From: Actinomycetes bacterium
GTDB taxonomy: Bacteria; Actinomycetota; Thermoleophilia; BMS3ABIN01
NCBI GenBank assembly: GCA_021790115.1
Contig: JAJYIM010000003.1
Span: 16,602-80,601 of the forward strand
Direction of reading: 5' to 3'
Length of the DNA stretch: 64,000 nt
Shown: positions 7,318 through 29,473 of the stretch, piece after piece
Layout of the letters: each line of letters opens with the position of its first letter
Numbering within the stretch: position 1 is the first letter of the stretch
Made by a program: the position numbers and the translations under genes
Notes under the pieces: generated by a model
What the model was told of the DNA's origin: nothing
Seen by the model: the letters and a program-made list of their open reading frames with translations, nothing else
The model's database searches: none

Positions 7318-7518
7318 AGGTCCGAAAGGACATAAACCGGAAAGGACTACGCCATGGAAAATCTTATCACGAGTACCAGCAAGACTACAGCAACCCTCGA
7401 CCTGACCCTGCTGATCCGCGGCAGGATCAGACAGTCCATCGAGAACATCCTTTATGAGGAACTGGCCATCGCCTTAGGAGCCGATAAATCCGAACGCACA
7501 GATGAGCGAAAGGGCTGC

Positions 7519-8547
7519 CTAGTAAGCGTCTTCATCCTTGATTACTTCTTCTTGCAACAGGCGGCTCTTAAAGACCCCGTAAACCCAGAGCTGGTAGCCA
7601 ACCACCAGTGGCATGAAGATGATCAGCGCCGCTGCAATGATCACAAGAGCGTAGGTGCTGGCGGCGGCATTGGCGATTGTAACGCTGTTGGCGCCGCTGC
7701 TCGTCGAGGGAAGCATGTTCGGATAGAGCCCGGCCAAGGCAAAAAAGACAAACACGACGATGGCGGCGGCAGATGACAAGAACGCCGCCAGGTCATTTTT
7801 AACCAGCAGAAAATATTTGTTTAAAAACACGGCGGCAACGGTAGCAAACGGAACCGCCAGCCAGGCAGGATGGTTGACATAATTGCCATAAAGTGTGGTC
7901 GCGTATCCAGTGTAAACCGCGAAAGCCGCTCCCACAAGCAGCAGCAAGTACCAGGTTCTGCCGGCCGCCGCTTCCGCCCGCCCTTTTAAATCGCCGCTCG
8001 TTTTTGCCGACAGCCACAGGGCGCCGTGATGCAAAAACAGGGCCAGGAACAACAGGCCGGCAAGCAGACTGTAGGGATTAAGAAAAGACAGCGCCGAGCC
8101 CGCAAAACCGTCACTTCCCAACGCAAGCCCCCGGAAAATATTGCCGAAGACAAGGCCAAAAAGAAAGGCGGGGGCGATACTTCCCAAAGCAAAGGCTGTA
8201 TCCCAGGCCCTGGCCCAGTGGCGGTGCTTCAGCTCGCCTCTGAAGTCGAAAACAACCCCGCGCAGGATCAGCGCCGCGACCAGAATCCCGAGCAGCGAAT
8301 AAAAACTGCTGAAAATGGAGGCGTAAGCATTAGGGAATGCCGCGAACGTGACCGCCCCGGCGGCAATCAGCCAGACCTCGTTGCCGTTCCAGACGGGGCC
8401 GATGCTGTTGATCATCAGCCGCCGCTCATCGCTGCTCCTGGCCAGAAAGGCGGAAAGCATGCCGACGCCAAAATCAAAGCCGTCCAGGGCAAAGTAGCCG
8501 GCCCAGAGAAATCCCCACAGGGCAAAGAGCAGGATCTGGAGCCTCAT
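7519..8547 (-). CDS. cydB: cytochrome bd ubiquinol oxidase subunit II
   Basis: MRLQILLFALWGFLWAGYFALDGFDFGVGML..., polytopic membrane protein. Start overlaps the cydA stop (ATGA). Confidence 0.9.
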   Translation of the reverse strand: MRLQILLFALWGFLWAGYFALDGFDFGVGMLSAFLARSSDERRLMINSIGPVWNGNEVWLIAAGAVTFAAFPNAYASIFSSFYSLLGILVAALILRGVVFDFRGELKHRHWARAWDTAFALGSIAPAFLFGLVFGNIFRGLALGSDGFAGSALSFLNPYSLLAGLLFLALFLHHGALWLSAKTSGDLKGRAEAAAGRTWYLLLLVGAAFAVYTGYATTLYGNYVNHPAWLAVPFATVAAVFLNKYFLLVKNDLAAFLSSAAAIVVFVFFALAGLYPNMLPSTSSGANSVTIANAAASTYALVIIAAALIIFMPLVVGYQLWVYGVFKSRLLQEEVIKDEDAY

Positions 8548-9896
8548 CTTGGCCTCCGCAGTTTTTCAGGACTGATAATCCGGGCCAGGTCTTCATCCGG
8601 CCCTTTTTTGGCGAATCTGGCTAAAAGGTAAACGTCAGTTACCGTCAGGCCGGAGTATAACAGACCTAATCCAATGATTGAGGTTAAAACCTGAGCAGTT
8701 GAGACATTAGCGGAGACGCCGTTGGCGGTGCGGAAAATATGATAGACGATCCAGGGCTGGCGGCCCACTTCCGCCACCACCCAGCCCAGCTCACAGGCGG
8801 CGTAGGGGAGAGGCAATGCGGCCAGCATTATCCAGAGGAACCGCCGCCGCCGGATAAATCCGGGCTTGCGGATATAGTAAACTGCCGCCAGGCCAAGCAG
8901 CATGAACAGCAGCCCCAGACCCACCATCAGCCGGAAGCTGATAAAAACGGGAATGACGGGCGGTCTCTCGTTGACGGGTATGTCATTCATCCCGGTTACC
9001 TTGCCGTTAAGGCTGTGTGTCGCCAGCAGGCTTTCGCCCCAGGGCAGAGATAGCGTTTGGATCAAGTTTTTGTTATGGCCGGGCCAGGGGATAACCAGCA
9101 GGTTATAGTCGGCCGGCTGTTTTGTGTCCCAATAGGATTCCATTGCTGCCAACTTGGCCGGCTGTGTCTGCGCCACTTCGTAAGCGTGCTCGTCCCCGAC
9201 CAGAAAGACCAGGAAAGAACTGACGAGGCCAAAGATGGCCGCCATCTTGAATGATTTGAGGAAAAAATCACTGTGCCGCTTGAGCAAATGATAAGCGGAA
9301 ATGCCGGTGACAAAAAAGGCGGCCACCACGAAGCCGGCGAACATCGTGTGCAGGAATTTAAGCCAGCCATACGGATTTGTGAAAAAGGCCAGGAAGTCCA
9401 CCATGCGCACGCGCCCCTGGCTGATCTGCTCGCCCACCGGGTGCTGCATCCAGCTGTTGGCAAGCAGAATCCAGAGGGCGGAAAGGTTTGCCCCCAGCAC
9501 CAGCATCCAGGCGGCAAACAAGTGTGTCTTTCTGGAAACGCGGTTCCAGCCCAGCACCCAGACGCCAATGAATGATGACTCCAGGAAAAAGGTGAGCAGC
9601 GATTCGATCGCCAGCGGGGCACCAAAAACGTCCCCGGCAAAGCTGGAGAACCGGGACCAGTTCATGCCGAACTGAAACTCGAGGAAGAGGCCGGTGGCGA
9701 CGCCGAGGGCAAAGTTGATCAGAAACAGCCGGCCCCAGAATTTTGTCATCTTCAGGTAAAGGCGGCTGCCGCTGCGCACGTAGCTGGTCTCCATAATCGC
9801 CACCAGCACGGAAAGTCCCAATATCAAAGGGACAAATATGAAATGGAACATCGTGGTCAGGCCGAACTGGATCCGGCTCAGCTCCAGTGTGTTCAT
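8544..9896 (-). CDS. cydA: cytochrome bd ubiquinol oxidase subunit I
   Basis: MNTLELSRIQFGLTTMFHFIFVPLILGL..., conserved CydA N-terminus and Q-loop region. 450 aa. Confidence 0.9.
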   Translation of the reverse strand: MNTLELSRIQFGLTTMFHFIFVPLILGLSVLVAIMETSYVRSGSRLYLKMTKFWGRLFLINFALGVATGLFLEFQFGMNWSRFSSFAGDVFGAPLAIESLLTFFLESSFIGVWVLGWNRVSRKTHLFAAWMLVLGANLSALWILLANSWMQHPVGEQISQGRVRMVDFLAFFTNPYGWLKFLHTMFAGFVVAAFFVTGISAYHLLKRHSDFFLKSFKMAAIFGLVSSFLVFLVGDEHAYEVAQTQPAKLAAMESYWDTKQPADYNLLVIPWPGHNKNLIQTLSLPWGESLLATHSLNGKVTGMNDIPVNERPPVIPVFISFRLMVGLGLLFMLLGLAAVYYIRKPGFIRRRRFLWIMLAALPLPYAACELGWVVAEVGRQPWIVYHIFRTANGVSANVSTAQVLTSIIGLGLLYSGLTVTDVYLLARFAKKGPDEDLARIISPEKLRRPR

Positions 9897-9917
9897 CGGG
9901 CAGCGGCTTCCTCTCCG

Positions 9918-11552
9918 TCACCGGCCGGCGGCCGGCTCAAAGCGGCAATCCGTGACGGGCTCGGCGGCCAGGCTTCCGGGCAACGACGTGGGATTTGGCC
10001 AGGCGCAGCCGCCCCGGGCCAGCAGCACTTCAGCATTCTGTGGGCCCATTGTGCCGGCGGCATAATTGGGAAAATCATCAGCCGGCAGGGATTGCCAATA
10101 CTCAAGAACGGGCGTCAGAATCGTCCAGGCAGCCTCCACCTGATCGGCGCGCATGAAAATGGTGGCGTCGCCCATCATCAAATCCCAAAGCAGGGTTTTG
10201 TAGGCATCCGGCAATGGCTCGCGGAAGGCGTCCCCGTAATTGAAATGCATGCTTACCGGCTGCAGGATAAGCTGCGCCCCCGGCTTCTTTGCCTGGAATC
10301 TCAAGGATATTCCTTCCTGCGGCTGAATGCAGAGAACCAGCGCCGCCGGCAGCCAGTTGCCGGCGGCCTCGGGAGGGAAAGATTGATGCGGCACCTGGCG
10401 AAAATGAATCACGATTTCCGACACCTGCTGGGCCAGCCGCTTGCCCGTGCGCAGGTAAAAGGGCACGTCTTGCCAGCGCCAATTGTCAACAAACAACTTC
10501 ATGGCGGCAAATGTTTCCGTGTTTGAGTCAGGGGCTACGCCCGGCTCCTGCCGGTATCCCGGCACCTGCTTGCCGTTGATTGTCCCGGCCCCGTACTGGC
10601 CGCGCGTCGCGAACTCCCAGACGGAATTTGACGGAATCTGGCGCACAGCGTGCAGAACGTCAACTTTCTTGTTCCGCAGCTCATCGGCGTCGAAGGAAAC
10701 AGGCGGCTCCATCGCAATCAGGCAAAGCAGTTGCAGCAGATGATTTTGCACCATGTCGCGCAGGGCGCCGGCGCCCTCGTAATAGCCGCCGCGGCGCTCC
10801 AATCCCACCTGCTCAGCCACTGTAATGGTGACGTAGTCAATATAGCGGCGGTTCCAGACAGGCTCGAACAAGACATTGGCAAACCGCAGGGCGAGGATGT
10901 TGCGCACGGTCTCCTTGCCCAGGTAATGGTCAATCCGGAATATCTGCGGCTCGTCAAACCTGCTTGAGATGGTGTGGTTGATTTCAAGCATCGATTTGAG
11001 ATCATGCCCGATAGGTTTTTCCACCAGGATGCGTGATTGCTTTCTTTTGCGGGCCAGCCGGGCCTTGCCCAGCATGTCGGCGATGACGCCGAAGAAACGG
11101 GGGGGAGTGGCGAGGTAAAAAATGCTGAGCGCCTTGCGCTCCCACTTTCTTTCCAGCCGGTCGAGGCGGTCCGCCAGTTGCGCAAATGCTTGTTTATTGG
11201 TAAAGTCCGCCCTAAAGTAACTAAAATGGCTGCCGAACTCTTTCCAGTCTTTCCCCCGGAGTTGGTGCTGGGCAAAGCGCTTGGCCCCGCTCCGGAACCG
11301 CTCCAGCAGCTCGTCTTCTCTGATCTGGACTGCGTCTACGATGACAATGGCAAAATAATCAGGCAGGCAGCCATCCTTAAAGAGGTCAAACAGCGCCGGC
11401 ACCAGCTTGCGCCAGGCCAGGTCGCCGGCCCCGCCGAAGATCACGAGCACGGTGGGCTCAGACGGCGGTTGATAGGAAGAAAGACCCGTTAGCGCGACTG
11501 CAGCTGACCCTTTTCGCTTTTGTGCTCTTGCTTGTGTTTTGACGGTTTGCAT
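9918..11552 (-). CDS. zwf: glucose-6-phosphate 1-dehydrogenase
   Basis: VIFGGAGDLAWRKLVPALFDL (dinucleotide-binding motif), RIDHYLGKE (substrate/catalytic motif), 544 aa. Lies 25 nt after nuoN and 21 nt before cydA on the same strand. Confidence 0.9.
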   Translation of the reverse strand: MQTVKTQARAQKRKGSAAVALTGLSSYQPPSEPTVLVIFGGAGDLAWRKLVPALFDLFKDGCLPDYFAIVIVDAVQIREDELLERFRSGAKRFAQHQLRGKDWKEFGSHFSYFRADFTNKQAFAQLADRLDRLERKWERKALSIFYLATPPRFFGVIADMLGKARLARKRKQSRILVEKPIGHDLKSMLEINHTISSRFDEPQIFRIDHYLGKETVRNILALRFANVLFEPVWNRRYIDYVTITVAEQVGLERRGGYYEGAGALRDMVQNHLLQLLCLIAMEPPVSFDADELRNKKVDVLHAVRQIPSNSVWEFATRGQYGAGTINGKQVPGYRQEPGVAPDSNTETFAAMKLFVDNWRWQDVPFYLRTGKRLAQQVSEIVIHFRQVPHQSFPPEAAGNWLPAALVLCIQPQEGISLRFQAKKPGAQLILQPVSMHFNYGDAFREPLPDAYKTLLWDLMMGDATIFMRADQVEAAWTILTPVLEYWQSLPADDFPNYAAGTMGPQNAEVLLARGGCAWPNPTSLPGSLAAEPVTDCRFEPAAGR

Positions 11553-11577
11553 TTTCCTTCCTTGTCTCGAGGAGCTG

Positions 11578-13005
11578 TTATTTCAGGGCGGCCGTCTTCT
11601 GTATCATGTCAATCAACGGCGCAGGATAAACACCCAGCCAGAAAATCACCGCCAGCAGCGCCGTCAGCATCAGGCTGCCGGCCCAGGGACAGGAAGCGGT
11701 GGCCTCGCCTGAGCTTGCCCCGCGCGGCCGCATGTACATCACCACGACCAGCCGCAGATAATAATAAAGGCTGATGCCGCTGCCGGCCACGAGCGAAAAG
11801 ACAAGCAGCCACAGCGATGAGCCCACGCCCGCGTCCAGCAGGTAGAACTTGCCGATAAAACCGGCTGTCAGCGGGATCCCTGCCAATGAAAAAAGCATGG
11901 CGGCAAATATCGCCGCCAGCCAGGGGCGGCGCCAGAAAAGCCCGCGGTAATCTTCCACGGCGTCTGCTTCGCGGCCGCGGCAAGGCGTCATCCCTACCAC
12001 TCCAAACGCACCCAGCGTTGTCGCCGTATAGGCAGACAGGTAAAAAGTGACGGCGGTGATGGCAAGGGGGCCGCTGGCCAGAAAAGCAACCAACAGATAA
12101 CCGAGATGAGCAATAGAAGAATATGCCAGAATCCTTTTTACGTTGTCCTGAGTTAGCGCCAGCAAATTACCGGCCAGCATTGAGGCAATGGCAATCAGCG
12201 CAAACATCAGAAACAGGTGCGCCTGCGGCCGGATGCCGACCTGGCTGAAGAACCTCAGCGCCAGGGCAAAGACGCCAACCTTGGAAACCGTGGCCACAAA
12301 CGCTGTCACCGGCGCCGGCGCTCCCTGATAAACATCCGCAGTCCACATGTGAAACGGCACCAACGCCAGCTTGAAACCAAGGCCAACCGCGAGCAAACCA
12401 AGGCCGGTTGTAAACAAGACACCGGCGTTCGCATCGGCTAAAGCCGCCATGCGGGAAAACTGCATGGTTCCTGTTTGATCATAAATGAAAGCCATGCCAA
12501 AAAGAAGAACAGAAGTTGATACCGAAGCCAAAATCAGGTACTTGACACCGGCTTCAATATTAAGGCGGCCGCGCGGGTAAGCAATCAGGATAAAGAGGGA
12601 TGAGCTGAGCAGCTCCAGCCCCAGGAACAGCGAAGCAAAGTGGCTGCTGGCGGCCATGACGGCGGCGCCAAGGGCGGCCAGCAGCAGCAGCAGGTAAAGT
12701 TCCTCCTGTTGCCCCTGCTGTTTGCGCAGATAGACAAAGGAAAAAACTGCCACAACAAACGTTGCCGCCAGGATGACGCCGGTATAAAACAGGGCGTAGC
12801 CGTCAACAACAAGGAGCGAGGTTACCCGGCGCGGGCCGCTACCAGCCGCCAACGGCAGCATCGCGGCGGCGGCCGTCAGCCCTGCCAGTGTGATCAGCAA
12901 GACCAGGATGTGGCTGCGGTAAACCGAAACCGCCAGCATGATCAGGACCACAGTTGCGGCAAGCACCGTCAGCGGCAACAGCGAGATAAAATCCTGGCCG
13001 CTCAA
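11578..13005 (-). CDS. nuoN: NADH-quinone oxidoreductase subunit N
   Basis: 14-TM antiporter-like subunit, last gene of the nuo block. Overlaps the nuoM stop. Confidence 0.85.
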   Translation of the reverse strand: MSGQDFISLLPLTVLAATVVLIMLAVSVYRSHILVLLITLAGLTAAAAMLPLAAGSGPRRVTSLLVVDGYALFYTGVILAATFVVAVFSFVYLRKQQGQQEELYLLLLLAALGAAVMAASSHFASLFLGLELLSSSLFILIAYPRGRLNIEAGVKYLILASVSTSVLLFGMAFIYDQTGTMQFSRMAALADANAGVLFTTGLGLLAVGLGFKLALVPFHMWTADVYQGAPAPVTAFVATVSKVGVFALALRFFSQVGIRPQAHLFLMFALIAIASMLAGNLLALTQDNVKRILAYSSIAHLGYLLVAFLASGPLAITAVTFYLSAYTATTLGAFGVVGMTPCRGREADAVEDYRGLFWRRPWLAAIFAAMLFSLAGIPLTAGFIGKFYLLDAGVGSSLWLLVFSLVAGSGISLYYYLRLVVVMYMRPRGASSGEATASCPWAGSLMLTALLAVIFWLGVYPAPLIDMIQKTAALK

Positions 13006-14567
13006 GAACCGCTCCCCGGTTTTGTGGCGCCTGCCTGGGGGTCCTTGTGCGCCACCGCGCCTGATGCTTCCGGCTGATGGTGCCCGGGCGCGTAACTGCC
13101 GAGCTTTTTCAGAGCTCCGCGCGCTGTACTTAAAACCGGCTGCGGGTAGAGGCCCAGTGCAGTGATCACCACAATCATGACCGCCATGATCGCGCTTTCA
13201 CGCAGGTTGTAATCAGGCAGTTGCCGGTGGTGCTTGTTCCGGCCCAGAAACACCCGCTGAACCAACCAAAGGGCGTAGACCGTGGAAACGATAAAACCAA
13301 GCGACGCCAGCACTGCCAGCGGAATGCTAACCTGGTAAACGCCCAGGAGCACCAGGAATTCACCGACAAAATTTCCCAGCCCCGGCAGCCCCAGCGAAGC
13401 GAGCGCAAACAGCAGCCCGGCTCCGCTCAGCCGCGGCATCACTGACCAAAGGCCACCCATGCGGTCAAGATCGCGCGTATGGATGCGGTCCTGGAGGTCG
13501 CCCACGATCACGAACAGCGCCCCGGTGCTGACCCCGTGCGCAATCATGATGACAATTGCTCCCTGCAGAGCCAGCTGGTTCCAGGCAAAGATCCCCAGCA
13601 GCACGAAACCCATGTGGCTGATGCTGGTGTAAGCGACCATGCGCTTAAGGTCAGTCTGGGAAAATGCCAGCAAGGCGCCGTAAATGATGCCCGCTACCGC
13701 CAGCGACATCGCCAGCGTGGAAAAATCAGAGGCGGCGCGGGGAAAAAGCGGCAGCAAAAAACGGAGCATGCCAAAAGCGCCCACTTTCAGCACCAGGCCA
13801 GCCAGGGCAACGCTGCCTGCCGTAGGCGCCTCTGTGTGGGCGTCGGGCAGCCAGGTGTGCAGCGGTAGCACCGGCAGCTTCACGGCAAAGGCGATGAAGA
13901 ACCCCAGCATCAACGCCATTTCCGTGAACGATGACATCGGTGTTCCCAACAGCCCGAGATAATCAAAAGTGTAAACGCCGCTGCTGTTTGCATGAGCAAA
14001 ATAGAGGCCCAGGATCGCCACCAGCATCACGAGGCTGCTGGCCTGGGTAAAGATAAAAAATTTAAGCGCCGCGTAAACGCGGTTCTGGTGCCCCCAGATG
14101 CCAATCAGAAAATAAAGCGGCACCAGCATCAGCTCCCAGAAAAAATAAAACAGAAACAGGTCAACAGCTAAAAAAACGCCGTCAATCGCCGCCAGAATCC
14201 AGAGCAGGTTAAAATGGAAAAATCCAACCCGGTGCTGGATGCCCTGCCACGAGGCGGCCACGGCCACGATCCCGAGAAAGCTTGTCAGCAGAATCATCAA
14301 CAGGCCAACGCCGTCCAGGGCCAGGTGAAACCTGGCGCCCCAGGCCGGGATCCAGGGCAGATTAAGCTCAGCCAGCCACTGTCCCGGAGCAGCCACAGCC
14401 AGGTTTCCGTGGCTAAAAAAGCCAATCCAGAGGCCGGTCAGCGCCGCCAGTTGCACCAGCAGCGTTATCAGCGAAATCCAGCGCGGCCAGGCATTGCCCC
14501 ACCGGGCCGAAAACCAGGCCAGCAGGCCTCCGGCAAGCAGCCACAGAATTAGCCAGGCCAGGATCAC
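13002..14567 (-). CDS. nuoM: NADH-quinone oxidoreductase subunit M
   Basis: Antiporter-like subunit, 521 aa, conserved NuoM core (…WLPDAHTEAPTAGSVALAGLVLK…). Confidence 0.85.
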   Translation of the reverse strand: MILAWLILWLLAGGLLAWFSARWGNAWPRWISLITLLVQLAALTGLWIGFFSHGNLAVAAPGQWLAELNLPWIPAWGARFHLALDGVGLLMILLTSFLGIVAVAASWQGIQHRVGFFHFNLLWILAAIDGVFLAVDLFLFYFFWELMLVPLYFLIGIWGHQNRVYAALKFFIFTQASSLVMLVAILGLYFAHANSSGVYTFDYLGLLGTPMSSFTEMALMLGFFIAFAVKLPVLPLHTWLPDAHTEAPTAGSVALAGLVLKVGAFGMLRFLLPLFPRAASDFSTLAMSLAVAGIIYGALLAFSQTDLKRMVAYTSISHMGFVLLGIFAWNQLALQGAIVIMIAHGVSTGALFVIVGDLQDRIHTRDLDRMGGLWSVMPRLSGAGLLFALASLGLPGLGNFVGEFLVLLGVYQVSIPLAVLASLGFIVSTVYALWLVQRVFLGRNKHHRQLPDYNLRESAIMAVMIVVITALGLYPQPVLSTARGALKKLGSYAPGHHQPEASGAVAHKDPQAGATKPGSGS

Positions 14568-16441: not shown

Positions 16442-16444
16442 GGC

Positions 16445-16753
16445 TCAGCCTTTCATTCTGCTTGCTTTGTCGATGTCCAGGGATTTGAGATGGTGATAAA
16501 GCTGCAGCACCAGCGCCAGCCCCAGTGAAACCTCCACTGCCGCCATGGCCAAGATGAAGATGAACATCAACTGCCCGTCGGGCTGCCGCCAGCGGGAGCC
16601 GCCGACAACAAACGCGAGGCCGGACGCGTTTACCATGATCTCAATCGACAACAGCATGAAAATGATGTTGCGGCGCGCCAGCACGCCGGCGAACCCGAGG
16701 ACAAACAGCGCCGCCGCCAGCAGCAGCCCGTAATTGGCGGGGATGGACGCCAT
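16445..16753 (-). CDS. nuoK: NADH-quinone oxidoreductase subunit K
   Basis: 102 aa, 3 TM, ...FMLLSIEIMVNASGLAFVV... Confidence 0.85.
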   Translation of the reverse strand: MASIPANYGLLLAAALFVLGFAGVLARRNIIFMLLSIEIMVNASGLAFVVGGSRWRQPDGQLMFIFILAMAAVEVSLGLALVLQLYHHLKSLDIDKASRMKG

Positions 16754-17301
16754 TAGACTTTCTCTCCATTTGGCCGACCGGAGCCTGGACTGTCGGAGCC
16801 TTCACTGCCGGAGCGGCGGCCCAGGTGGTAGGCTCCCACCAGCCCGGCCAGCAGCAGCAGCGAGGCCAGCTCAACCCCAAGCAGGTATGGCCCAAACAGG
16901 GCGATGCCCACTTCATTTGCGCCCACCACGGCCGTGCCGGCTTTGGGCTCCTGCTCGCCCCCGGAGATAAGGATGTAGATGAGCTCTCCCGCCAGGATCA
17001 GCGCCAGCGCGGCCGGACCCAGCCAGGTCCTCGGCTTGAGCCAGATGCGCTCCACCCGCGCCGCCTGGGGGCCAAGGTTAAGGATCATGATTACGAAAAT
17101 AAACAGCACCATAATCGCCCCGGCGTAGATGATCGCCTCAAGCGCCGCCGCAAAAGGCGCCCCCAGGATGAAAAAAATCAGCGATACGGCCAGCAGCGAG
17201 ACAATCAGGTAAAGGAGCGCGTGAACGGCGTTATAGCGGGTGATCACGGCAAGTGTGGCCACAACCGCAACCGCCGCCGAGATGTAAAAAGTGACGTCCA
17301 A
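16753..17301 (-). CDS. nuoJ: NADH-quinone oxidoreductase subunit J
   Basis: 182 aa membrane subunit between nuoI and nuoK. C-terminal Ser/Gly-rich tail. Confidence 0.8.
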   Translation of the reverse strand: MDVTFYISAAVAVVATLAVITRYNAVHALLYLIVSLLAVSLIFFILGAPFAAALEAIIYAGAIMVLFIFVIMILNLGPQAARVERIWLKPRTWLGPAALALILAGELIYILISGGEQEPKAGTAVVGANEVGIALFGPYLLGVELASLLLLAGLVGAYHLGRRSGSEGSDSPGSGRPNGEKV

Positions 17302-17319
17302 GCTATTCTCCGTAGGTCA

Positions 17320-17835: not shown

Positions 17836-17843
17836 ATGATCTC

Positions 17844-18797: not shown

Positions 18798-18871
18798 TGA
18801 TGCGCTTCCTGTTTGTCAATGCGGTCATGCCTGAACTTTCATCACATGTGACCGCCGGGTGCAGGCCCCCT

Positions 18872-21583: not shown

Positions 21584-21590
21584 TATTTGA

Positions 21591-22877
21591 TCACGCGTGT
21601 TTCCACGGGCACCTTTTCTGATGGACGTGGCGCTCGAAATCTTCCCGGAAGAAACGCAGGGCGCTGGCTAGGGGCTCGGCCGCCCCAGGAGCGAGAGCGC
21701 AATAAGTGTGGCCGGGAGCAAGCATGCCCGCCAGCGAAGCCAGCATGTCAATGTCTTCCATCCGGCCCCTGCCGGCTTCGATGTCACCCAGCAGCTGAAC
21801 GATAAACTGCAGGCCTCCCCAGCAAGGAGTGCACCAGCCGCATGATTCCCTGGCAAAGAAACGCTCAAGGTTAAGAACCATGCCAACGGGACAGGAACGG
21901 TCGTCCAGGACGATAATGGTGCCTGTGCCCAGCCGGCTGCCGGCGGCTTCCACAGAACCAAAATCCATCTTCACGTCAAGGTGCGCCGGGGTAAGAAAAT
22001 CCGTCGAAGCGCCGCCGGGCAAAAGGCCGCGCAGGCTGTAACCTTCCTGCATCCCGCCCGCGTGCTCCTCCAGAACTTCTTTTAAGGTCGTTCCCATCGG
22101 CAGTTCCCAGGCGCCCGGGGAGCGGACGCGGCCGCTGGCGCCGTATATTTTCGTGCCGCCCTCGGCGCTGCGGCTCAGCCCCTTAAACCAGCCGGCGCCA
22201 TTGTTGACGATATGCGGAATATTACAGATGGTCTCAACGTTGTTTACGACAGTGGGCTTGCCCCAGAGTCCGGATGTTTGCGGGTAAGGCGGCTTGGAGC
22301 GGGGGTTGGCCCGTTTGCCTTCTATGGCGTTAAGCAGCCCCGTCTCCTCGCCGCAAATATAGCGGCCGCCGCTGATATGAAGATAAAGATCGAGGCTGAA
22401 GCCGGAACCGATGATATTGCGCCCCAGGAGGCCGCGGCTATAGGCTTCGGCGACCGCCTGTTTAAGCTGCCTGGCGGCTAGCCGGTATTCCCAGCGCAGG
22501 AATACAAAGGCAACTTCCGCCTGAACGGCGTAGGCGGCCAGAATCGCACCCTCAACCAGCTGGTGCGGGTCGCCTTCCAACAGCAACCTGTCTTTAAAAG
22601 CGCCGGGCTCCATCTCATCAGCGTTGACAACCAGGTATTTTGGATGGGGCGCATCCTCTCCCATCGGGACGAAGCTCCATTTCTGACCGGCGTCAAAGCC
22701 GGCGCCGCCCCTGCCTTTAAGGCCGGCGTCCTTGACGGCCCCGGTGACCTCCGCCGGCGCCATGCCCTTAAGCGCCTTGCGCACGGCCCGGTAGCCGCCG
22801 TTTTTCTCGTAGGCGGCGATATCCGGCGGCCGGCGCCCAGGACGGATGTTCATTGTCAGAGGCGTTTCCATTTCCAT
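21591..22877 (-). CDS. nuoF: NADH-quinone oxidoreductase subunit F (NADH-binding, FMN, 4Fe-4S)
   Basis: GRGGAGF (NADH/FMN site), C-terminal ESCGWCTPC Fe-S motif. 428 aa. Confidence 0.9.
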   Translation of the reverse strand: MEMETPLTMNIRPGRRPPDIAAYEKNGGYRAVRKALKGMAPAEVTGAVKDAGLKGRGGAGFDAGQKWSFVPMGEDAPHPKYLVVNADEMEPGAFKDRLLLEGDPHQLVEGAILAAYAVQAEVAFVFLRWEYRLAARQLKQAVAEAYSRGLLGRNIIGSGFSLDLYLHISGGRYICGEETGLLNAIEGKRANPRSKPPYPQTSGLWGKPTVVNNVETICNIPHIVNNGAGWFKGLSRSAEGGTKIYGASGRVRSPGAWELPMGTTLKEVLEEHAGGMQEGYSLRGLLPGGASTDFLTPAHLDVKMDFGSVEAAGSRLGTGTIIVLDDRSCPVGMVLNLERFFARESCGWCTPCWGGLQFIVQLLGDIEAGRGRMEDIDMLASLAGMLAPGHTYCALAPGAAEPLASALRFFREDFERHVHQKRCPWKHA

Positions 22878-22948
22878 TGGTTCAAAGTTTCAGGTTTAGG
22901 TTTTGTCCAGCATCCATAATCCAGCATCCAGCATCCGTTTACTCGTAC
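22878..22948 (+). repeat. heptamer-tandem intergenic element copy C, in the 61-nt nuoE-nuoF intercistronic gap
   Basis: GGTTCAAAGTTTCAGGTTTAGGTTTTGTCCAGC ATCCATA ATCCAGC ATCCAGC ATCCGTTTACTCG. Confidence 0.7.
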
Positions 22949-23403
22949 TTATCAAGGATCTCGCCGATTCTGTCCGGGTCGACGTTGGTGTGCAAATCTT
23001 CGTCGATCATCATTGCCGGCGCCCGGTCGCAGGCGCCCAGGCAGACAACCGGCAAAAGAGTGAAGCGGCCGTCTGCGGTTGTCCGGCCCGGGTCGACTCC
23101 GAGGCAGCCGGCAATGTGGCTCATCAACTTCTTCGAATCCATCAGCCAGCAGCTGACGCTGTCACAGGCGAGGATCACGTGCCTGCCCACAGGCCGTCTG
23201 AATATCAAGTTGTAGAAGCTGGCGGTTCCGTCCAGCTCGGCAATGGGCATCTCCAGCAGTTTGCTCAGCTCAGCGATGGCCTCGTCAGAAACCCATCCCT
23301 GGTGGCGCTGCACTATCCTGAGGGCGTCGATGGCGGCTGCCTGCCTGACCGGGTAAGGAGCCATTGCCGCTTCTATTTCCATTTTTACTTCTCTTTTTAA
23401 CAT
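22939..23403 (-). CDS. nuoE: NADH-quinone oxidoreductase subunit E (2Fe-2S)
   Basis: Thioredoxin-like 2Fe-2S motif ACDSVSC...VVCLGACDRAP. 154 aa. Confidence 0.9.
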   Translation of the reverse strand: MLKREVKMEIEAAMAPYPVRQAAAIDALRIVQRHQGWVSDEAIAELSKLLEMPIAELDGTASFYNLIFRRPVGRHVILACDSVSCWLMDSKKLMSHIAGCLGVDPGRTTADGRFTLLPVVCLGACDRAPAMMIDEDLHTNVDPDRIGEILDKYE

Positions 23404-23430
23404 TGTTAGTTTATCTTTGCTGCTTTTCGA

Positions 23431-25188
23431 TTAGCGGTCCACATCCGCCAGGACGTAATCGATGCTTCCCAGGATCGCCAGCAGGTCAGGGATCATGGCG
23501 CCGCCGCTGATAAAGGGGATCATCTGCAAGTGGGGGAAGGAGGGGGTGCGGATGCGCAGCCGGTAGGGTCCGCTGCCGCCATCGCTGATCAGATAGTAGC
23601 TGTTTATCCCTTTCGCCGCCTCAACGGCGGCGGTTGCTTCCCCGGGCGGAATAACAGGCCCCCAGCCGGCCTGAAGAAAATGGGTGATCAGGGTCTCGAT
23701 GTCAGCCAAGGTTCGCTGCTTTGGCGGCGGCGCCGCCAAGGGATGGCCAGCCTTGTATGGCCCTGGGGGCATGTTTTCCACGCACTGGCTGATGATCCTC
23801 AGGCTCTGGCTGATTTCCGCTACCCGCACTGCCGCCCGGTCATAGCAGTCGCCGGCGTCAGCGGTGGGAATGTCAAACTCGAACTGGTCATAACCGCTGT
23901 AGGGGCGCTGCTTGCGCAAATCCCATTCCAGCCCGCAGGCGCGCAGTCCGGGGCCGGTGACGCCCCACTCGACTGCTTCCTTAAGCGAGTAGGCGCCAAT
24001 GCCCTTGGTGCGGGCCTTGAAAATGCGGTTCTGCATTACGATGCGGTCATATTCCTGCAGCCGCCGGGGCAGATAAGCCAGAAAGTCACGCACTCCCGCG
24101 TCCCAGCCCCGGGGCAGGTCCTGGGCGACACCGCCGATGCGGAACCAGTTGGGGTGCATGCGGTCCCCGCAGATGGCGGCAATGATGTCAAAGAGGCGTT
24201 CGCGGTCGGTAAACATGTAAAACACCGGCGACATCGTCCCCACGTCCTGGGCAAAGGTGCCGTACCAGACCAGATGGCTGGCGATGCGGAACAGCTCCGA
24301 CAGCATCACCCTGATCACCTGCGCCCGCTCCGGGACCTCGATGCCGGCCAACTGCTCCACCGCCATCACGTACGGCAGGTTGTTCAGAACGCCGCCCAGA
24401 TAGTCAATGCGGTCAGTGTAAGGAATGTAAGTATGCCAAGTCTGCCGCTCGCCCATTTTTTCCGCGCCGCGGTGGTGATAGCCAATATCAGGAACAGCGT
24501 CAACGATCACTTCACCGTCCAGCTGCAGAACGATGCGCAACAGGCCATGCGTGCCAGGGTGCTGCGGGCCGACATTGAGGAAAAGAAAATCTGTATCACC
24601 GTGGCGCCGGCTGATGCCCCAGTCCTCAGGACGAAACTTGAGCGCCTGCTCCTCTTTCTCTTCCCTGGCTTCAGGCAGCCGGTACGGCTCCATTTCGGTG
24701 GCCCGGGCGGGATGCTCCTTCCGCAGCGGGTGGCCTTCCCAGGTGGGCGGCATCAGGATGCGGCGCAGGTGCGGATGCCCGTTAAAGACAATGCCAAACA
24801 TGTCCCAGGCTTCCCGCTCATACCAGTTGGCTGCGGGCCAGATATTGACAATGCTTTGGGCGGCGGGGCTTTCCCCCTTCAACGCAGTTTTGACGCAAAT
24901 ATCCTCAGCGCGGTCAAGGGAGAAAAGATGGTAGGCGAGCGTAAAATCACCCTCCGGCTGGTCACGGCGGTGGCTGCGCAGGCGCTCATCGATGGCGGTC
25001 AGGTTGTAAAGCATTGGGAAGGGGCTGCCGGCCTCGCTTTTTAGATACCGTAACAGCTGTGGCAATTTGTCAGCGGGCGCCCAGATAACGGGGGGGCCGC
25101 CCTGCACCTGCTGGCGGGTGAAACCCGGGCCGCCGAATTTCTGCTCGGCTGCCGCAAGTGCATCGGCGCTGCTTTCCTGGACTTTCAC
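23431..25188 (-). CDS. nuoCD: NADH-quinone oxidoreductase subunit C/D fusion
   Basis: 585 aa: N-terminal ~170 aa NuoC-like (30 kDa subunit) fused in frame to the NuoD 49-kDa domain ([16 protein letters not shown]... to C-terminal ...YVLADVDR). Confidence 0.85.
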
Positions 25189-25193
25189 CTTGC

Positions 25194-25829
25194 CTAGACC
25201 TCGCCGGGGGGCCTGAGCCTGTCGGTTTTTTGCCTCTCGGCACGCATGCGGTCGCGGCGGGCGGGAAATGGGGGGCGCACAGTATCCTGCCGGGCGGCAT
25301 GCCAGCTAAGCGGCCGCCGCTCCCGTCCGACAGCGCTGCTGAGCATCAGCAGCCCTTCCATGAAAGCATCGGGGCGGGGGGGACAACCGGGCACGTAAAC
25401 GTCGACGGGCAGAAACTTGTCAACTCCCTGGACAACGCTGTAAATGTCGTACATGCCGCCGGAGTTGGCGCACGAGCCCATTGAGATCACCCAGCGCGGC
25501 TCCATCATCTGCTCGTAGAGAAGCTTGATGATGGGCGCCATTTTCGCAAAGACGGTGCCGGCAATTACCATCAGGTCAGCCTCCCTGGGCGTTCCCCTGA
25601 TCACCTCGGCGCCAAAGCGGGCGATATCATACTTGCTGGTAATGCAGGTGGCCATCTCCACGTAGCAGCATGAAAGGCCGAAGTTAAAAGGCCAGATTGA
25701 GTTTTTGCGGCCCCAGGAGATCAGATCCTGAAGCCGGGAGAGCAAAAGCACGCGCCCAACCGTCTCTGCCGGCGAATCTGTCCAGGCCGCCATTTTGGCG
25801 CCTTCTCCGTCTCCGGCCGAAGCGATCAT
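25194..25829 (-). CDS. nuoB: NADH-quinone oxidoreductase subunit B (4Fe-4S N2)
   Basis: CCYVEMA...[10 protein letters not shown]...GCPPRP cysteine ligands. Has a ~50-aa Arg-rich C-terminal tail beyond the conserved core. Confidence 0.85.
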
Positions 25830-26266
25830 GACCTGCCTTTTTCCGGTGGTCCGGCGTTACCGCCGCCCGGCCGGAGCCCAGCACCCGGCTTTGGCCGCCG
25901 CGGTCCCCAATCAAGGGCGCCCTGCCGCCACAGATACGCCAACGCCGCGCCGAGGATGCCGATAAAGACGACAATTTCAATATATCCCTGCCAGCCGGCG
26001 GCGCGGATGGCGACAGCCCAGGAAATAATAAACATGGCCTCCAGATCAAAGATGACAAAGAAAATCGCGTTCTGATAAAACTTGACATCAAAGCGCACCC
26101 GCGCAGTACCCGTTGATATAATCCCAGATTCGTATGGTTTGCCGGTCTCTGTTTCCCGGTGCCGTTGCCCGAGGATGTAGGAAAGCGCCAGCAGCCCCCC
26201 GGTGATGAACACGGTCGCGCCAAAATAAACAGCCAGCGGCCAAAGCGGAATCCGGGCTACGTCCAT
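25826..26266 (-). CDS. nuoA: NADH-quinone oxidoreductase subunit A
   Basis: 3-TM NuoA core (…[21 protein letters not shown]…) plus a Gly/Pro-rich C-terminal tail. Start overlaps the gnd stop by 10 nt. Confidence 0.85.
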
Positions 26267-27663
26267 TGCGTGTGAAAAACCCCCTCCGCATCCACGCGCT
26301 CGTACTTATGGGCGCCGAAATAATCGCGCTGCGCCTGGATCAGATTGGCAGGCAGCCGGGCGCTGCGGTAGCCGTCAAAATACGCCAGGCAGGCCATGAA
26401 GGCCGGCGACGGAATATGCAGGCGGGCGGCGGCGCTGGCAACATCGCTCAGGGCGTCAAGCCGTTTCCGCGCTTCGCCACCGATCTCCCTGTCCAGGAGA
26501 ATATTGGGCAGGTCCGGCCGCTGCCGGTAAGCCGCGCGGATAGTTTCCAGCAGGCTGGCCCTGATGATGCAGCCGCCGCGCCAGATGCGGGCGACCGCCT
26601 CCAGGTCGAGGCCGTAACCATATGAATCCGAAGCCCTTTTCAAATGGGCCATTCCCTGGGCGTAGGCGATAATGACGGCAGCATAAAAAGCATCCCTGAG
26701 CCGGGACAGAAACTGGTCCCGGCCGCCCTCCAGGCCATGGCCGGCGCCGCCCAGCGCGCCCGCGGCGGCCAGCCGCTCGCTTTTAAAAGCAGACAGGTTG
26801 CGCATGGCAACGGCGGCGTCCATGGCCGGCGCCGGCACGCCCAGGTTCATGGCGTCCTGGGATGTCCACATTCCCGTTCCCAACTGTTTTGCTTCGTCGC
26901 GAATCATGTTGACAAGAGGGTTGCCAGTGTCATCATCAACCCTGGCGAGGATGTCAACAGTTATCTCAAGCAGGAAAGAGGCAGCCTCGCCCTGGTTCCA
27001 GTTGCCAAAAGCAGCCTGCATCTGAGCAGCGCTCAGACCCAGGCCCTGCTTCATCAGGTCGTAGGATTCGGCAATTAACTGCATCACGGCGTATTCGATG
27101 CCGTTATGGACCATCTTGACGTAGTGGCCGGCCGACCGCGGCCCTAGGTAGGTGACGCAAGGATCGCCGCCCACCCGGGCGGCGGCCGCCTCGAGGACGG
27201 ACTGCACCTGCCCGTAGGCTTTCTTGCTGCCGCCCGGCATGATGCTGGGGCCATGCCGGGCGCCGCTCTCGCCGCCGGAGACGCCGGCGCCCATGAAGTG
27301 GATGCCACTGCCGGCCAGCATCTGCTCGCGGCGGTCGGTATCCTTGAAAAAAGAGTTGCCGCAGTCGATAATCAGGTCGCCAGGCTTTAGCAGCGGCAGC
27401 AGATCGCCAATGACGGCGTCCACCGGCGGCCCTGCCGGAACCAGCATCATCACCGCCCGGGGCTGGCGCAGCGCCGAAACAAGCTCCGCCGGGCTTTGAG
27501 CCGCCAGGACCGGCCGGCCGGCGGCCTCTTCCCGCATGGCTTGCAATTGGGACTGGTCCTTGTCGTAACCTGCGACGCTGAAGCCATGGTCGGCAATGTT
27601 GAGAACCAGGTTGCGTCCCATCACTCCCAGGCCGATCATGCCGATCTCGTATTGCCCGCTCAT
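26257..27663 (-). CDS. gnd: 6-phosphogluconate dehydrogenase (decarboxylating)
   Basis: N-terminal Rossmann IGMIGLGVMGRNLVLNI, 468 aa, full-length similarity to the Gnd family. The residues aligned to the NADP 2'-phosphate-binding N-R-S/T motif are D-K-D. Confidence 0.9.
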   Translation of the reverse strand: MSGQYEIGMIGLGVMGRNLVLNIADHGFSVAGYDKDQSQLQAMREEAAGRPVLAAQSPAELVSALRQPRAVMMLVPAGPPVDAVIGDLLPLLKPGDLIIDCGNSFFKDTDRREQMLAGSGIHFMGAGVSGGESGARHGPSIMPGGSKKAYGQVQSVLEAAAARVGGDPCVTYLGPRSAGHYVKMVHNGIEYAVMQLIAESYDLMKQGLGLSAAQMQAAFGNWNQGEAASFLLEITVDILARVDDDTGNPLVNMIRDEAKQLGTGMWTSQDAMNLGVPAPAMDAAVAMRNLSAFKSERLAAAGALGGAGHGLEGGRDQFLSRLRDAFYAAVIIAYAQGMAHLKRASDSYGYGLDLEAVARIWRGGCIIRASLLETIRAAYRQRPDLPNILLDREIGGEARKRLDALSDVASAAARLHIPSPAFMACLAYFDGYRSARLPANLIQAQRDYFGAHKYERVDAEGVFHTQWT

Positions 27664-27730
27664 GGTGACCTCCTAAGATTGCATTCGTCCCGGCTGCGCA
27701 ACGCAACAAAGGACGCAATTAATCCTTACT

Positions 27731-29473
27731 TCAAAAATCCAGCTTCACGTTTCGAACGATCTCTTCCACCCGCGCCAGCCCTTCTTTCGGGTCGCCGCCC
27801 AAATGCACCCGCATCACCTTTCTGCCATGGCGGCGCAGAGCCATGAAGTCGCCGAGCGCCTGCGCCTGCTTAAAGACGCTAAATCCGTAGGCCGCGCCGG
27901 GAATCAGGGCGTCCTCGGCGTCATCGCAGGTAAGCTGCAAAAACAGGCCGCCGGCCGGACCGCCTTTGTGAAACTGGCCCGTTGAGTGCAGGAACCTGGG
28001 GCCAAAACCCACAGTCACCGCCAGGTGCAGCCTGTCCCGGAGGGCGGCCTGCAGCCGGGCCAGAACGTGCGCAGTGGCCTTATCTTCAGCCAGATAAGCC
28101 ATCAAGGCCAGGTAGCCACCAGGCCGCCCTTCACTTAAAAAAGAACCGATAGCCTCGGCAACCGTGACAACCGGCGGCTTAAAGCTCTCGTAGTAGACGC
28201 CGAGCGGCGCCTCCACCAAAAGCGGGGTCTCCGGCGGCAGTTCTCCGGTTTTTGCCACCTGGTCCAGCAGGCGGTTGGTATTGTCCTTGCTTTCCTGAAC
28301 ATTGGGCTGATCAAACGGATTGACGCCCAAGACAATGCCGGCAACGGCGGTGGCTGCCTCCCAGCGGAAAAACTCCTGCCCCAGCTGATATGGCTCATCA
28401 ATCCTGATCGTCACAACCGGCTGGCCGGCGGCTTTTAGCTTGTCCACGGCCGCTTCCAGGGCGGGGTCACCGCCTGCCCAAAGATAAACAAACAGCCGGT
28501 CAGTGCCGTAAACACCGGGGGAGCCGACCGCCTCGCCGGCCACCGGCAGCAGGCCTCTGCCTTTTTTCCCAGTGCTTTCCGCCAGCAACTGCTCCAGCCA
28601 CATGCCCAAGGGAGCGATTGACTCTGCCGACAGAAACGTCACCTTATCCCGACCCTGAAGCGCCAGCTCGCCAAGAGCCGCCCCCAGCACCAGGCCGGGA
28701 TTTGCCTGGACCGGGACTTCCGCGGCGCAGGCGCGCTGCATGCCAAGCGCCTGCTTAAGCAACGCTTCCGTGTCCGCGCCCGCCAAGGCGGCTGGCACGA
28801 GGCCGAAGAACGACAGGGCCGAATAGCGCCCGCCAATGTCGGGAAAATTTAAGAAGACGTGGCGAAAATCCCTGCCGGCGGCCGATTGGGCCAGCGGGGA
28901 TCCAGGGTCGGTGATGGCGATAAAATTTTCTCCTGCCCGCCCGCCCTTTGCCTCTGAGACCCGCCGGAAAAAATATTCTGCAAAAGCCCGCGGCTCGGCC
29001 GTGGTGCCGGATTTGCTGGCAACGATAAAGATGGTCTCCGTCAGCGGGGCTTCCTTTTCTATCTTTAGAATAGTCGCCGAATCTGTCGTATCCAGCACCG
29101 TCAGCGGCAGCCCCTGGTTTTTCCCGGGAAGAATTTTGGCCATCACCAGCGGCGCCAGGCTGCTTCCTCCCATGCCCATGTGAACCACACGGCGAAAGCC
29201 GGCAGCCAGTACTTCCTGCCTCAGTTTTAAAAGCAAATCCTGGTTGGCCGCCATGGTTGCAGCGGCGTCAAGCCAGCCGAGGGAATCTCCAACCTGACTG
29301 TGCTCTTTGGCGTTCCCGCTCCACAGCGAGGCATCCTTGCGCCAAAGCCGCCCGCCAATATCTGCGTCTTTAAAGCCGTCCAGCCGGACCTCAACCGCCT
29401 GGCGGTACGAGCCCAGATCAAGCGTCTGCCGGCCGGCCACTTTCACAACCGCATCATTTTCTTTCTTTACCAT
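27731..29473 (-). CDS. pgi: glucose-6-phosphate isomerase
   Basis: 580 aa. C-terminal PGI signature ...VGFGPRFLHSTGQFHKGGP... and sugar-isomerase (SIS) domains. Confidence 0.75.
   Translation of the reverse strand: MVKKENDAVVKVAGRQTLDLGSYRQAVEVRLDGFKDADIGGRLWRKDASLWSGNAKEHSQVGDSLGWLDAAATMAANQDLLLKLRQEVLAAGFRRVVHMGMGGSSLAPLVMAKILPGKNQGLPLTVLDTTDSATILKIEKEAPLTETIFIVASKSGTTAEPRAFAEYFFRRVSEAKGGRAGENFIAITDPGSPLAQSAAGRDFRHVFLNFPDIGGRYSALSFFGLVPAALAGADTEALLKQALGMQRACAAEVPVQANPGLVLGAALGELALQGRDKVTFLSAESIAPLGMWLEQLLAESTGKKGRGLLPVAGEAVGSPGVYGTDRLFVYLWAGGDPALEAAVDKLKAAGQPVVTIRIDEPYQLGQEFFRWEAATAVAGIVLGVNPFDQPNVQESKDNTNRLLDQVAKTGELPPETPLLVEAPLGVYYESFKPPVVTVAEAIGSFLSEGRPGGYLALMAYLAEDKATAHVLARLQAALRDRLHLAVTVGFGPRFLHSTGQFHKGGPAGGLFLQLTCDDAEDALIPGAAYGFSVFKQAQALGDFMALRRHGRKVMRVHLGGDPKEGLARVEEIVRNVKLDF

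Follow-up and report, generated by a model that had tools for sequence, protein, structure and literature searches.

The oxidative pentose phosphate pathway (PPP) is usually taught as a supply of NADPH for biosynthesis, separate from respiration. A 64-kb stretch of DNA from an Actinomycetes bacterium of the class Thermoleophilia (GenBank assembly GCA_021790115.1, contig JAJYIM010000003.1, positions 16,602–80,601 of the forward strand; hereafter the window, counted from its first letter) raises the question of whether the two can be joined in one genetic unit. In this window, the PPP genes pgi, gnd, and zwf lie in the same run as the nuo genes, which encode complex I (the NADH:quinone oxidoreductase), and the cydAB genes for cytochrome bd oxidase. 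An earlier reading of the locus, called the original prediction here, described it as a module that passes electrons from glucose-6-phosphate to O2. We consider, with a probability of roughly 60%, that the cluster is a composite operon in which 18 genes are co-transcribed and NADH from the PPP feeds the co-encoded complex I.

Gene organization of the cluster

The genes of the window were taken from its open reading frame (ORF) listing and then identified by profile searches with Pfam and NCBIfam. These three sources confirmed the co-directional run on the minus strand: it is unbroken from 29473 to 7519 and consists of 18 genes in the order pgi-gnd-nuoABCDEFGHIJKLMN-zwf-cydAB. The number of genes, previously given as 20, was corrected to 18, and nuoC and nuoD form a single fused gene of 585 amino acids (aa). 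The features of the run are as follows, from its upstream end.

27731–29473, minus strand: pgi, phosphoglucose isomerase, 580 aa (PF00342; NF007080 positions 371–946, 662 bits)
26257–27663, minus strand: gnd, long-chain 6-phosphogluconate dehydrogenase (6PGDH), 468 aa (TIGR00873, 584 bits, cut-off 427)
26257–26266, minus strand: overlap between gnd (stop) and nuoA (start), 10 nt, CAATGGACGTAG (spacing table, sequence read)
25826–26266, minus strand: nuoA (PF00507)
25194–25829, minus strand: nuoB (PF01058)
23431–25188, minus strand: nuoCD, fused, 585 aa (PF00329 and PF00346; NF008728, 992 bits, cut-off 840)
22939–23403, minus strand: nuoE, short form, 154 aa (PF01257)
21591–22877, minus strand: nuoF, 428 aa (Pfam)
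18872–21583, minus strand: nuoG, long and E. coli-like, 903 aa (TIGR01973, 612 bits; Pfam)
17844–18797, minus strand: nuoH (PF00146)
17320–17835, minus strand: nuoI (Fer4 families)
16753–17301, minus strand: nuoJ (PF00499)
16445–16753, minus strand: nuoK (PF00420)
14564–16441, minus strand: nuoL (PF00361 and PF00662)
13002–14567, minus strand: nuoM (PF00361)
11578–13005, minus strand: nuoN (PF00361)
9918–11552, minus strand: zwf, glucose-6-phosphate dehydrogenase (G6PDH), 544 aa (TIGR00871, 608 bits, cut-off 401)
8544–9896, minus strand: cydA, cytochrome bd oxidase subunit I, 450 aa (PF01654, 560 bits, positions 1–418 of 418)
7519–8547, minus strand: cydB, cytochrome bd oxidase subunit II, 342 aa (PF02322, positions 1–302 of 302; TIGR00203, 255 bits, cut-off 117)

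The spacings over all 18 genes range from −10 to 74 nt, and the largest gaps inside the cluster are found at nuoG/nuoH (74 nt), pgi/gnd (67 nt), and nuoE/nuoF (61 nt). The junctions reported in the original prediction were all exact, namely the 10-nt overlap of gnd and nuoA, the 25 nt between nuoN and zwf, the 21 nt between zwf and cydA, and the overlap of cydA and cydB, which measures −4 nt. The nuo genes (11578–26266) hold gnd and zwf 14.7 kb apart. A later start of zwf, which would widen the gap after nuoN, was rejected. The gap of 25 nt is considered real because a strong ribosome-binding site (AAGGAAGGAAA-ATG) precedes the ATG at 11552 and no competing start occurs before codon 35. The catalytic motifs EKPIG and RIDHYLGKE of Zwf are intact. 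The NCBIfam models of E. coli CydA (522 aa and 514 aa) match the CydA of the window in two stretches and far under their cut-off (NF011677, 410 bits against 968), and nothing related to cyd, either cydDC or cydX, was found downstream of 7519.

Conservation and origin of the linkage

Relatives of the window were collected as loci (labelled L0xx) from species-representative genomes or contigs, and were compared with 77 Zwf loci from species-representative genomes and 80 from metagenomes that lie outside the clade of the window's Zwf. The closest species-representative genomes are metagenome-assembled genomes (MAGs) labelled Thermoleophilia or Actinomycetes. An origin from acetic acid bacteria, such as Gluconobacter or a relative, to which the fused Tal/PGI match and the E. 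coli-type nuo genes had pointed, was rejected, since the genome scan assigns the locus to Thermoleophilia MAGs. The closest relative, B_ACT_02 (GCA_014874175.1), is assigned to Actinobacteriota, Thermoleophilia, order and family BMS3ABIN01, and was recovered from the deep, anoxic layer of Cueva de la Mora, a pit lake that is acidic and rich in metals (PMC7563247). Other MAGs of the clade are GCA_014874265.1, GCA_021787475.1, GCA_021790075.1, GCA_054636075.1, GCA_023382335.1, and the JAJYXB01 assembly. The full pgi-gnd-nuo-zwf-cydAB cluster is present in four genomes of this uncultured Thermoleophilia lineage, including the window. Contigs JACWAD010000009 of B_ACT_02 (loci L081 and L016) and JACWAM010000082 (L094 and L085) carry it in full; in JAJYLW010000021 (L080), its upstream half was read as far as nuoK, and the Zwf of the same contig (P0003) falls in the clade. 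The overlap of −10 nt between gnd and nuoA is identical in the window, L080, L081, and L094. The original prediction had staked itself on such synteny not being absent from relatives, and its retention in four genomes bears it out on this point.

The linkage itself is confined to one clade. Throughout the Zwf clade of the window, nuo or cyd genes adjoin zwf, whereas neither was found beside zwf in any of the 77 genome loci or the 80 metagenome loci outside it (0/157), and on this basis we regard the arrangement as more than chance. A scan of Joint Genome Institute (JGI) metagenomes, used as a negative background, yielded no further clade member above 61% identity. In the loci outside the clade, gnd-zwf or pgi-gnd-zwf is common, with gnd and zwf adjacent in 26 of the 80 metagenome loci and in many genome loci. 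Within the clade, the pgi…nuo…zwf bracket is kept down to 66% identity of Zwf and 76% identity of NuoCD while the neighbouring genes change. In L001, nuoG–N, zwf, and cydAB are visible. L091 and L083, the latter being the deepest member of the clade, have a fused transaldolase-isomerase (Tal-PGI) of 946 aa, a HAD hydrolase, nuoA–N, and zwf, and in L093 (GCA_054636075.1) pgi is directly followed by nuoA. The cydAB end is the least stable part of the cluster. In L016, cydA (11657–13005) is frameshifted, with residues 1–103 in one frame and 104–450 in another, and is either a pseudogene or an assembly error.

Some features of individual relatives were noted separately. The apparent gap of ∼330 nt between zwf and cydA in L016 was rejected as an operon break; the frameshift in cydA produces it, and the two genes really lie 21 nt apart. 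Long spacers at nuoN-zwf in L016 and at zwf-cydA in L085 were likewise rejected as a sign of separate operons. They hold short GC-rich repeat-like units (…CCTGAGCGAAG…GGATGATC…) that have no copy in the window and look like small mobile or REP-type insertions. In L093 (5437–8961), nuoF is shortened to 385 aa and nuoG is split into pieces of 473 aa and 268 aa, which indicates either a decaying complex I or a poor assembly. In L086 (GCA_023382335.1; 1–9357), a different PPP operon (tkt, a short-chain gnd of 338 aa, a zwf of 456 aa, tal, and pgi) lies on the opposite strand ∼5 kb upstream of nuoA, with cytochrome b-like genes in between, so that PPP and nuo genes are again neighbours there in a different configuration.

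How such a cluster probably arose can be read from its relatives. In neighbour-joining trees, the nuo-linked Zwf proteins form one clade and their NuoCD proteins form one clade; the nuo-zwf linkage is of single origin. The outgroup locus L082 has the order tkt-rpiB-…-tal/pgi-HAD-gnd-zwf-pgl, and it shares 64% identity with L091 in the Tal-PGI protein and 57% in the HAD protein, the two that flank nuo in L091. The Pgi of the window is only the isomerase half of this bifunctional transaldolase/PGI family (NF007080 371–946), and is 60% identical to residues 367–944 of the fused Tal-PGI proteins in L091 and L082. The window and tal/pgi-(HAD)-gnd-zwf-pgl operons, which are found in L082, several Chloroflexi, and many metagenome loci, therefore share orthologous Pgi (isomerase half), Gnd, and Zwf, whose genes are ordered and oriented alike; in contrast, the window has nuo between gnd and zwf, lacks the transaldolase domain, HAD, and pgl, and has cydAB at the position of pgl in L082. 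The nearest nuo operons outside the clade show 70–74% NuoCD identity, with named matches including Chloroflexi, Nitrospirota, and Acidobacteria, and the two that were examined stand alone (L089, Ardenticatenaceae, Chloroflexi; and L088, GCA_973848165.1). The likeliest origin is that a complete clade E nuo operon of 13 genes lodged once at the gnd/zwf junction of an older tal/pgi-HAD-gnd-zwf-pgl operon. This merger would have occurred in an ancestor of the uncultured Thermoleophilia lineage, with relatives in the GTDB order BMS3ABIN01. It would have been followed by lineage-specific losses of the Tal domain, HAD, gnd, and pgl, and by a gain of cydAB downstream of zwf in most members.

Transcription and translation signals

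If the 18 genes form one operon, they should share a promoter region and lack internal breaks. The only non-coding room for a promoter of the cluster is the following region.

29474–29825, minus strand: divergent AT-rich intergenic region of ∼350 nt between pgi and pgsA (plus strand; Pfam), from the sequence read

Parts of this region are conserved with L081, and it presumably serves as the promoter region of the cluster. A consensus scan for sigma-70 promoters gave no minus-strand candidate upstream of pgi, the consensus being uninformative for Actinobacteria. Consensus scans found no terminator-like hairpin at any junction within the cluster, and an Rfam scan of the whole window detected only a tRNA-Pro, with no leader or riboswitch. 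Since gnd and nuoA overlap by 10 nt, there is no non-coding space for a nuo promoter. A free-standing nuo operon with its own promoter upstream of nuoA is thus not what is seen in the window, and the same overlap occurs in three other genomes. Through this conserved overlap, nuoA is probably translationally coupled to gnd. The spacing of the genes, together with the absence of terminator-like hairpins, points to a single transcription unit of 18 genes.

Two candidate regulatory sites were considered separately. A 20-nt palindrome, CTTGCCTAAATTTGGCAAAG, occupies 29566–29585, ∼95 nt upstream of where pgi begins; L081 retains part of it, and some regulator might use it as an operator. No Rex operator was found upstream of pgi; the single match in the window lies inside another gene, at chance level.

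Cofactor signatures of Zwf and Gnd

The positions that correspond to residues contacting the 2'-phosphate of NADP+ in related structures are as follows.

11331–11333, minus strand: codon of Zwf Ala74, preceded by Asp73 (alignment to G6PDH structures)
27556–27567, minus strand: Gnd motif Y33-D34-K35-D36 (alignment to PDB 2w90 and 2iyp)

Zwf Ala74 aligns with the Arg in the β2-α2 loop that binds the 2'-phosphate (R46 in L. mesenteroides, R50 in E. coli, and R72 in human). This position is Ala or Val in 7/7 nuo-linked Zwf proteins of the clade, whereas 97% of the 113 sister homologues that come next in similarity carry Arg, in the motif V-D-R-V (P0008, for example); only 17 of the 544 columns discriminate the clade, this position among them. 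Among the species-representative loci, all five nuo-linked loci examined (from four genomes) lack the Arg, while 55 unlinked loci have it and about 18 do not. The absence of this Arg has been used as a criterion for NAD+-using G6PDHs, and the known enzymes with the highest NAD+ specificity lack it (Volke et al., 2021; PMC8546961); moreover, the R50A substitution lowers the preference for NADP+ in the E. coli G6PDH (Fuentealba et al.; PMC4807051). The NAD+-preferring G6PDHs of P. putida (ZwfB), K. hansenii, and B. cepacia (PMC8546961) resemble the Zwf of the window in lacking the equivalent of E. coli R50. They differ in that the window Zwf belongs to another subfamily and has an Asp directly before the missing Arg, and in that its specificity is only predicted. 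The nearest solved structure, PDB 9emm, reads F-A-R-R in the β2-α2 loop.

In Gnd, Y-D-K-D stands where NADP+ enzymes read Y-N-R-T/S/L, namely N-R-L in PDB 2w90 and N-R-T in 2iyp; the Arg of that motif binds the 2'-phosphate. In the 6PGDH of Moorella, the variants A30D/R31I/T32I and A30E/R31I/T32D, which alter the same three positions, reverse the preference to NAD+ (PMC5009329). The name of the NCBIfam model for Gnd, "NADP-dependent," is a label only; the matches in the D-K-D subfamily, among which Chloroflexi, Planctomycetes, and Bacteroidetes are named, carry the same automatic annotation. Based on these residues, Zwf and Gnd are predicted to be NAD+-capable, or at least without a preference for NADP+, and the clearest cofactor signal, which is also clade-specific, is that of Zwf. 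The suggestion in the original prediction that the dehydrogenases produce NADH thus fits the Arg-less Zwf, the D-K-D of Gnd, and the NuoF motif described below. The Gnd motif is common to its whole subfamily.

Type of complex I

All core subunits of complex I are present in the canonical order A, B, CD, E, F, G, H, I, J, K, L, M, and N (Pfam). Fusion of NuoC and NuoD is almost exclusive to clade E complex I (Spero et al., 2015; PMC4453560), and the NuoF of the window has its best PDB match in E. coli NuoF (531 bits, compared with 404 for T. thermophilus and 401 for M. smegmatis). The fused NuoCD, short NuoE, long NuoG, and structural match of NuoF mark the predicted complex as clade E, that is, E. 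coli-type. The cluster agrees with an E. coli-type clade E nuo operon in its 13 genes, canonical order, fused NuoCD, NuoE of 154 aa, NuoG of 903 aa, and NADH-site motif. It differs in that the nuo genes are not free-standing, nuoA overlapping the gnd stop and zwf following nuoN after 25 nt, and in its host, which belongs to the actinobacteria (Thermoleophilia) and not to the proteobacteria. The motif C-G-E-E-T of NuoF (22341–22355) is of the NADH type, and its second Glu aligns with E. coli Glu183. Morina and colleagues are said to have found in 2011 that Glu183 of NuoF excludes NADPH. The encoded complex I is accordingly predicted from the GEET motif to be NADH-specific.

Proposed pathway and alternative explanations

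The sequences establish what the genes are, how they are ordered and spaced, that they are conserved among genomes, that their linkage arose once, and which residues are substituted; from this, we infer co-transcription, NAD+ use by both dehydrogenases, and a catabolic role in NADH supply. In the proposed pathway, transcription of all 18 genes would start in the ∼350-nt region upstream of pgi, with translation of nuoA coupled to that of gnd. Pgi would regenerate glucose-6-phosphate from fructose-6-phosphate, and Zwf and then Gnd would oxidize glucose-6-phosphate to ribulose-5-phosphate, giving two NADH. Complex I would oxidize this NADH, reduce the membrane quinone pool, and pump protons, and where oxygen is present, the bd oxidase would re-oxidize the quinol. 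Provided that the genes of the non-oxidative branch lie elsewhere, Pgi would close a cyclic PPP. A stronger version holds that the oxidative PPP has been turned into a dedicated NADH-generating respiratory pathway, hard-wired to complex I by the operon and by gnd/nuoA translation, that the G6PDH switched from NADP+ to NAD+ at the merger, and that the cyclic PPP is a main energy source rather than glycolysis and the tricarboxylic acid (TCA) cycle. It would then be a natural case of the fusion of a pathway with a respiratory chain. We hold this version tentatively, at less than even odds.

Several observations weigh against the composite operon. First, pgl and the genes of the non-oxidative branch are absent from the window: tblastn with the Pgl of L082 and with the Tal domains of L082 and L091 found no match in the 64 kb, and the pgl and transaldolase genes may be encoded elsewhere in the genome. 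Second, the cluster is not uniform among relatives. L086, a nested member of the clade, has the start of a stand-alone nuo operon; cydAB is missing in L083, as it is in L091, and gnd is missing from the cluster in L091, L083, and L093. The nuoN-zwf spacer of L016 measures 303 nt (9698–10000) and the zwf-cydA spacer of L085 measures 406 nt (11600–12005), and promoters could lie inside them. Third, the transcript data for ACT_02, from the one published metatranscriptome of a relative (nuoB 151 transcripts per million, nuoA 0, and cydA and cydB 0; PMC9326234 supplement) are too sparse to support or refute one transcript. Fourth, about 18 of 75 Zwf loci outside the clade likewise lack the Arg, and R50 is not conserved in actinobacterial G6PDHs (Fuentealba et al.; PMC4807051); the missing Arg is for this reason a predictor and not proof. 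Fifth, Asp-Lys/Arg/Gln-Asp/Glu occurs in 120/120 of the nearest Gnd homologues (P0121–P0240), including those of ordinary gnd-zwf operons. The Gnd motif is thus not an adaptation specific to the cluster and belongs to a wide subfamily, and the retained positive Lys35 may give dual specificity. Finally, relatives live in anoxic water, so that quinol may often pass its electrons to an acceptor other than oxygen.

This last point leads to the alternative that survives best, in which, in anaerobic or micro-oxic acidophiles, the same composite operon would pass electrons from NADH through complex I to menaquinone for anaerobic respiration, with sulfate or sulfite (via Qmo/Dsr) or other compounds as acceptors, and the bd oxidase would mainly scavenge or protect against O2. 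ACT_02 and ACT_11, from the deep, anoxic layer of an acidic pit lake, have sat, aprAB, qmoABC, dsrAB in two copies, and genes of the Wood-Ljungdahl pathway, with dsr and qmo expressed (PMC9326234). In gammaproteobacteria, enzymes of anaerobic respiration are enriched in those genomes that encode a clade E complex I, and E. coli cannot respire fumarate without its complex I (PMC4453560); cydAB is also the most dispensable part of the cluster, down to the frameshifted cydA of L016. However, only 21 nt separate zwf from cydAB in the window, where both cyd frames are intact, sulfate-reduction genes are absent from the 64 kb, and the lifestyle of the window organism may differ from that of ACT_02, with which it shares 82% Zwf identity. 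We consider this reading unlikely, though the likeliest of the alternatives. As for the proposed route from glucose-6-phosphate to O2, the cluster underlying it is real, tight, and conserved, and its oxygen endpoint may be overstated, given the anoxic relatives with sulfate-reduction genes and the variable cydAB.

Another explanation is that nuo landed in the PPP operon once and was simply never separated, with separate internal promoters for the PPP genes, nuo, and cydAB and no functional coupling. The linkage is of single origin, so its conservation could partly be inheritance; the flanks are unstable, with gnd, HAD, the Tal domain, and cydAB each present in some relatives and missing from others; and the long spacers of L016 and L085, the stand-alone nuo operon of L086, and the ACT_02 data, in which transcripts of nuoB are present and those of cydAB were not seen, all fit such an accident. 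Nevertheless, the pgi…nuo…zwf bracket persists over the divergence given above despite its changing neighbours, and the gnd/nuoA overlap in four genomes forces either co-expression of gnd and nuo or a promoter inside gnd. In addition, the loss of the Zwf Arg maps exactly to the nuo-linked clade, which neutral insertion does not predict, and the long spacers look like secondary repeat insertions. We therefore regard a mere accident of position as improbable. Least of all do we favour the idea that the dehydrogenases still make NADPH and are co-expressed with the respiratory chain as a defence against respiration-derived reactive oxygen species, which is very unlikely: zwf belongs to oxidative-stress regulons in many bacteria, NCBIfam places Gnd in an "NADP-dependent" model, and Gnd keeps a Lys at the Arg position, but the Zwf Arg was lost specifically in the nuo-linked clade, the Asp at the end of β2 in both enzymes disfavours the 2'-phosphate, and NADPH would be unconnected to complex I if the GEET Glu of NuoF acts as it reportedly does in E. 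coli. The composite operon, with NADH from the PPP feeding complex I, remains our preferred reading.

Genomic surroundings

The rest of the window is core chromosome, including rpsB-tsf-pyrH-frr-uppS-cdsA-dxr-rseP-ispG-proS, murT/gatD, and an FHA/MerR pair, and B_ACT_02 has the same neighbouring genes on the pgi side. We therefore consider that the cluster resides on the chromosome and has been passed down vertically in the lineage. On the downstream side, cydB is followed by a broken quinone-oxidoreductase-like gene, the tRNA-Pro, and fmt/def/priA/metK. The broken gene (6400–7317, minus strand) resembles Zn-dependent alcohol dehydrogenases or quinone oxidoreductases, has an in-frame TGA at 7060–7062, and apparently lacks a normal N-terminus; its homologue in L016 (15097–15957) is in one frame and appears intact. 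A plus-strand ORF at 7354–7776 was considered as a transposase remnant or rearrangement scar and rejected, since it has no Pfam match and is conserved only as the antisense shadow of cydB.

On the other side of the cluster, a fused sugar-nucleotidyltransferase/phosphomutase of 837 aa (30606–33119, plus strand) shows 92–93% identity to the corresponding proteins of L080 and L081, compared with only 69–74% for the neighbouring PgsA and Pgi, and is thus conserved to an unusual degree. It is followed at 33142–34300 (minus strand) by a small Ras/Arf-like GTPase and a Roadblock/LC7 protein, an MglA/MglB-like module that occupies the same place in L081. In ACT_02, the metagenome abundance of nuoA and nuoB is ∼2 times that of cydB (PMC9326234, supplementary table), which hints at a second nuo operon in that genome.

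Comparison with known systems and implications

The closest functional analogy is Gluconobacter oxydans, an obligate aerobe with a catabolic, partly NADH-yielding cyclic PPP. The proposed logic is the same in both, with an oxidative PPP closed by Pgi serving as a respiratory electron source; to our knowledge, however, the PPP genes of Gluconobacter are not embedded in a respiratory operon. Streptomyces and other actinobacteria have cydABDC operons and Rex-controlled nuo/cyd regulons, in which complex I and the bd oxidase are co-expressed according to the NADH/NAD+ balance. Here, in contrast, the coupling would be by co-location, with no cydDC after cydB and no Rex box upstream. The NAD+-dependent Gnd of G. 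oxydans (Gox1705; PMC5574463) is short-chain, whereas that of the window is long-chain. At the level of the enzymes, the Arg-less NAD+-preferring G6PDH isozymes of Pseudomonas and its relatives are the closest analogy.

In full-text searches, no publication was found that describes a pgi-gnd-nuo-zwf-cyd cluster or a nuo operon within PPP genes, in agreement with the original prediction, and papers on the related MAGs score nuo, cyd, and the PPP separately without mention of their linkage (PMC9326234). The enzymes all come from well-known families; what is unusual is the architecture and its correlation with the Zwf substitution. We see the cluster less as a new mechanism than as a clean and conserved case that lends itself to testing. 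It offers a testable link between gene neighbourhood and cofactor specificity, and an example of how large operons can merge. The automatic name "NADP-dependent" is probably wrong or too narrow for this Zwf clade and for the wide D-K-D subfamily of 6PGDHs. For the never-cultured Thermoleophilia of acid mine lakes, the cluster provides a concrete hypothesis of energy metabolism. If the composite operon works as proposed, it would be genomic evidence that some bacteria use the PPP mainly as a source of NADH for the respiratory chain.

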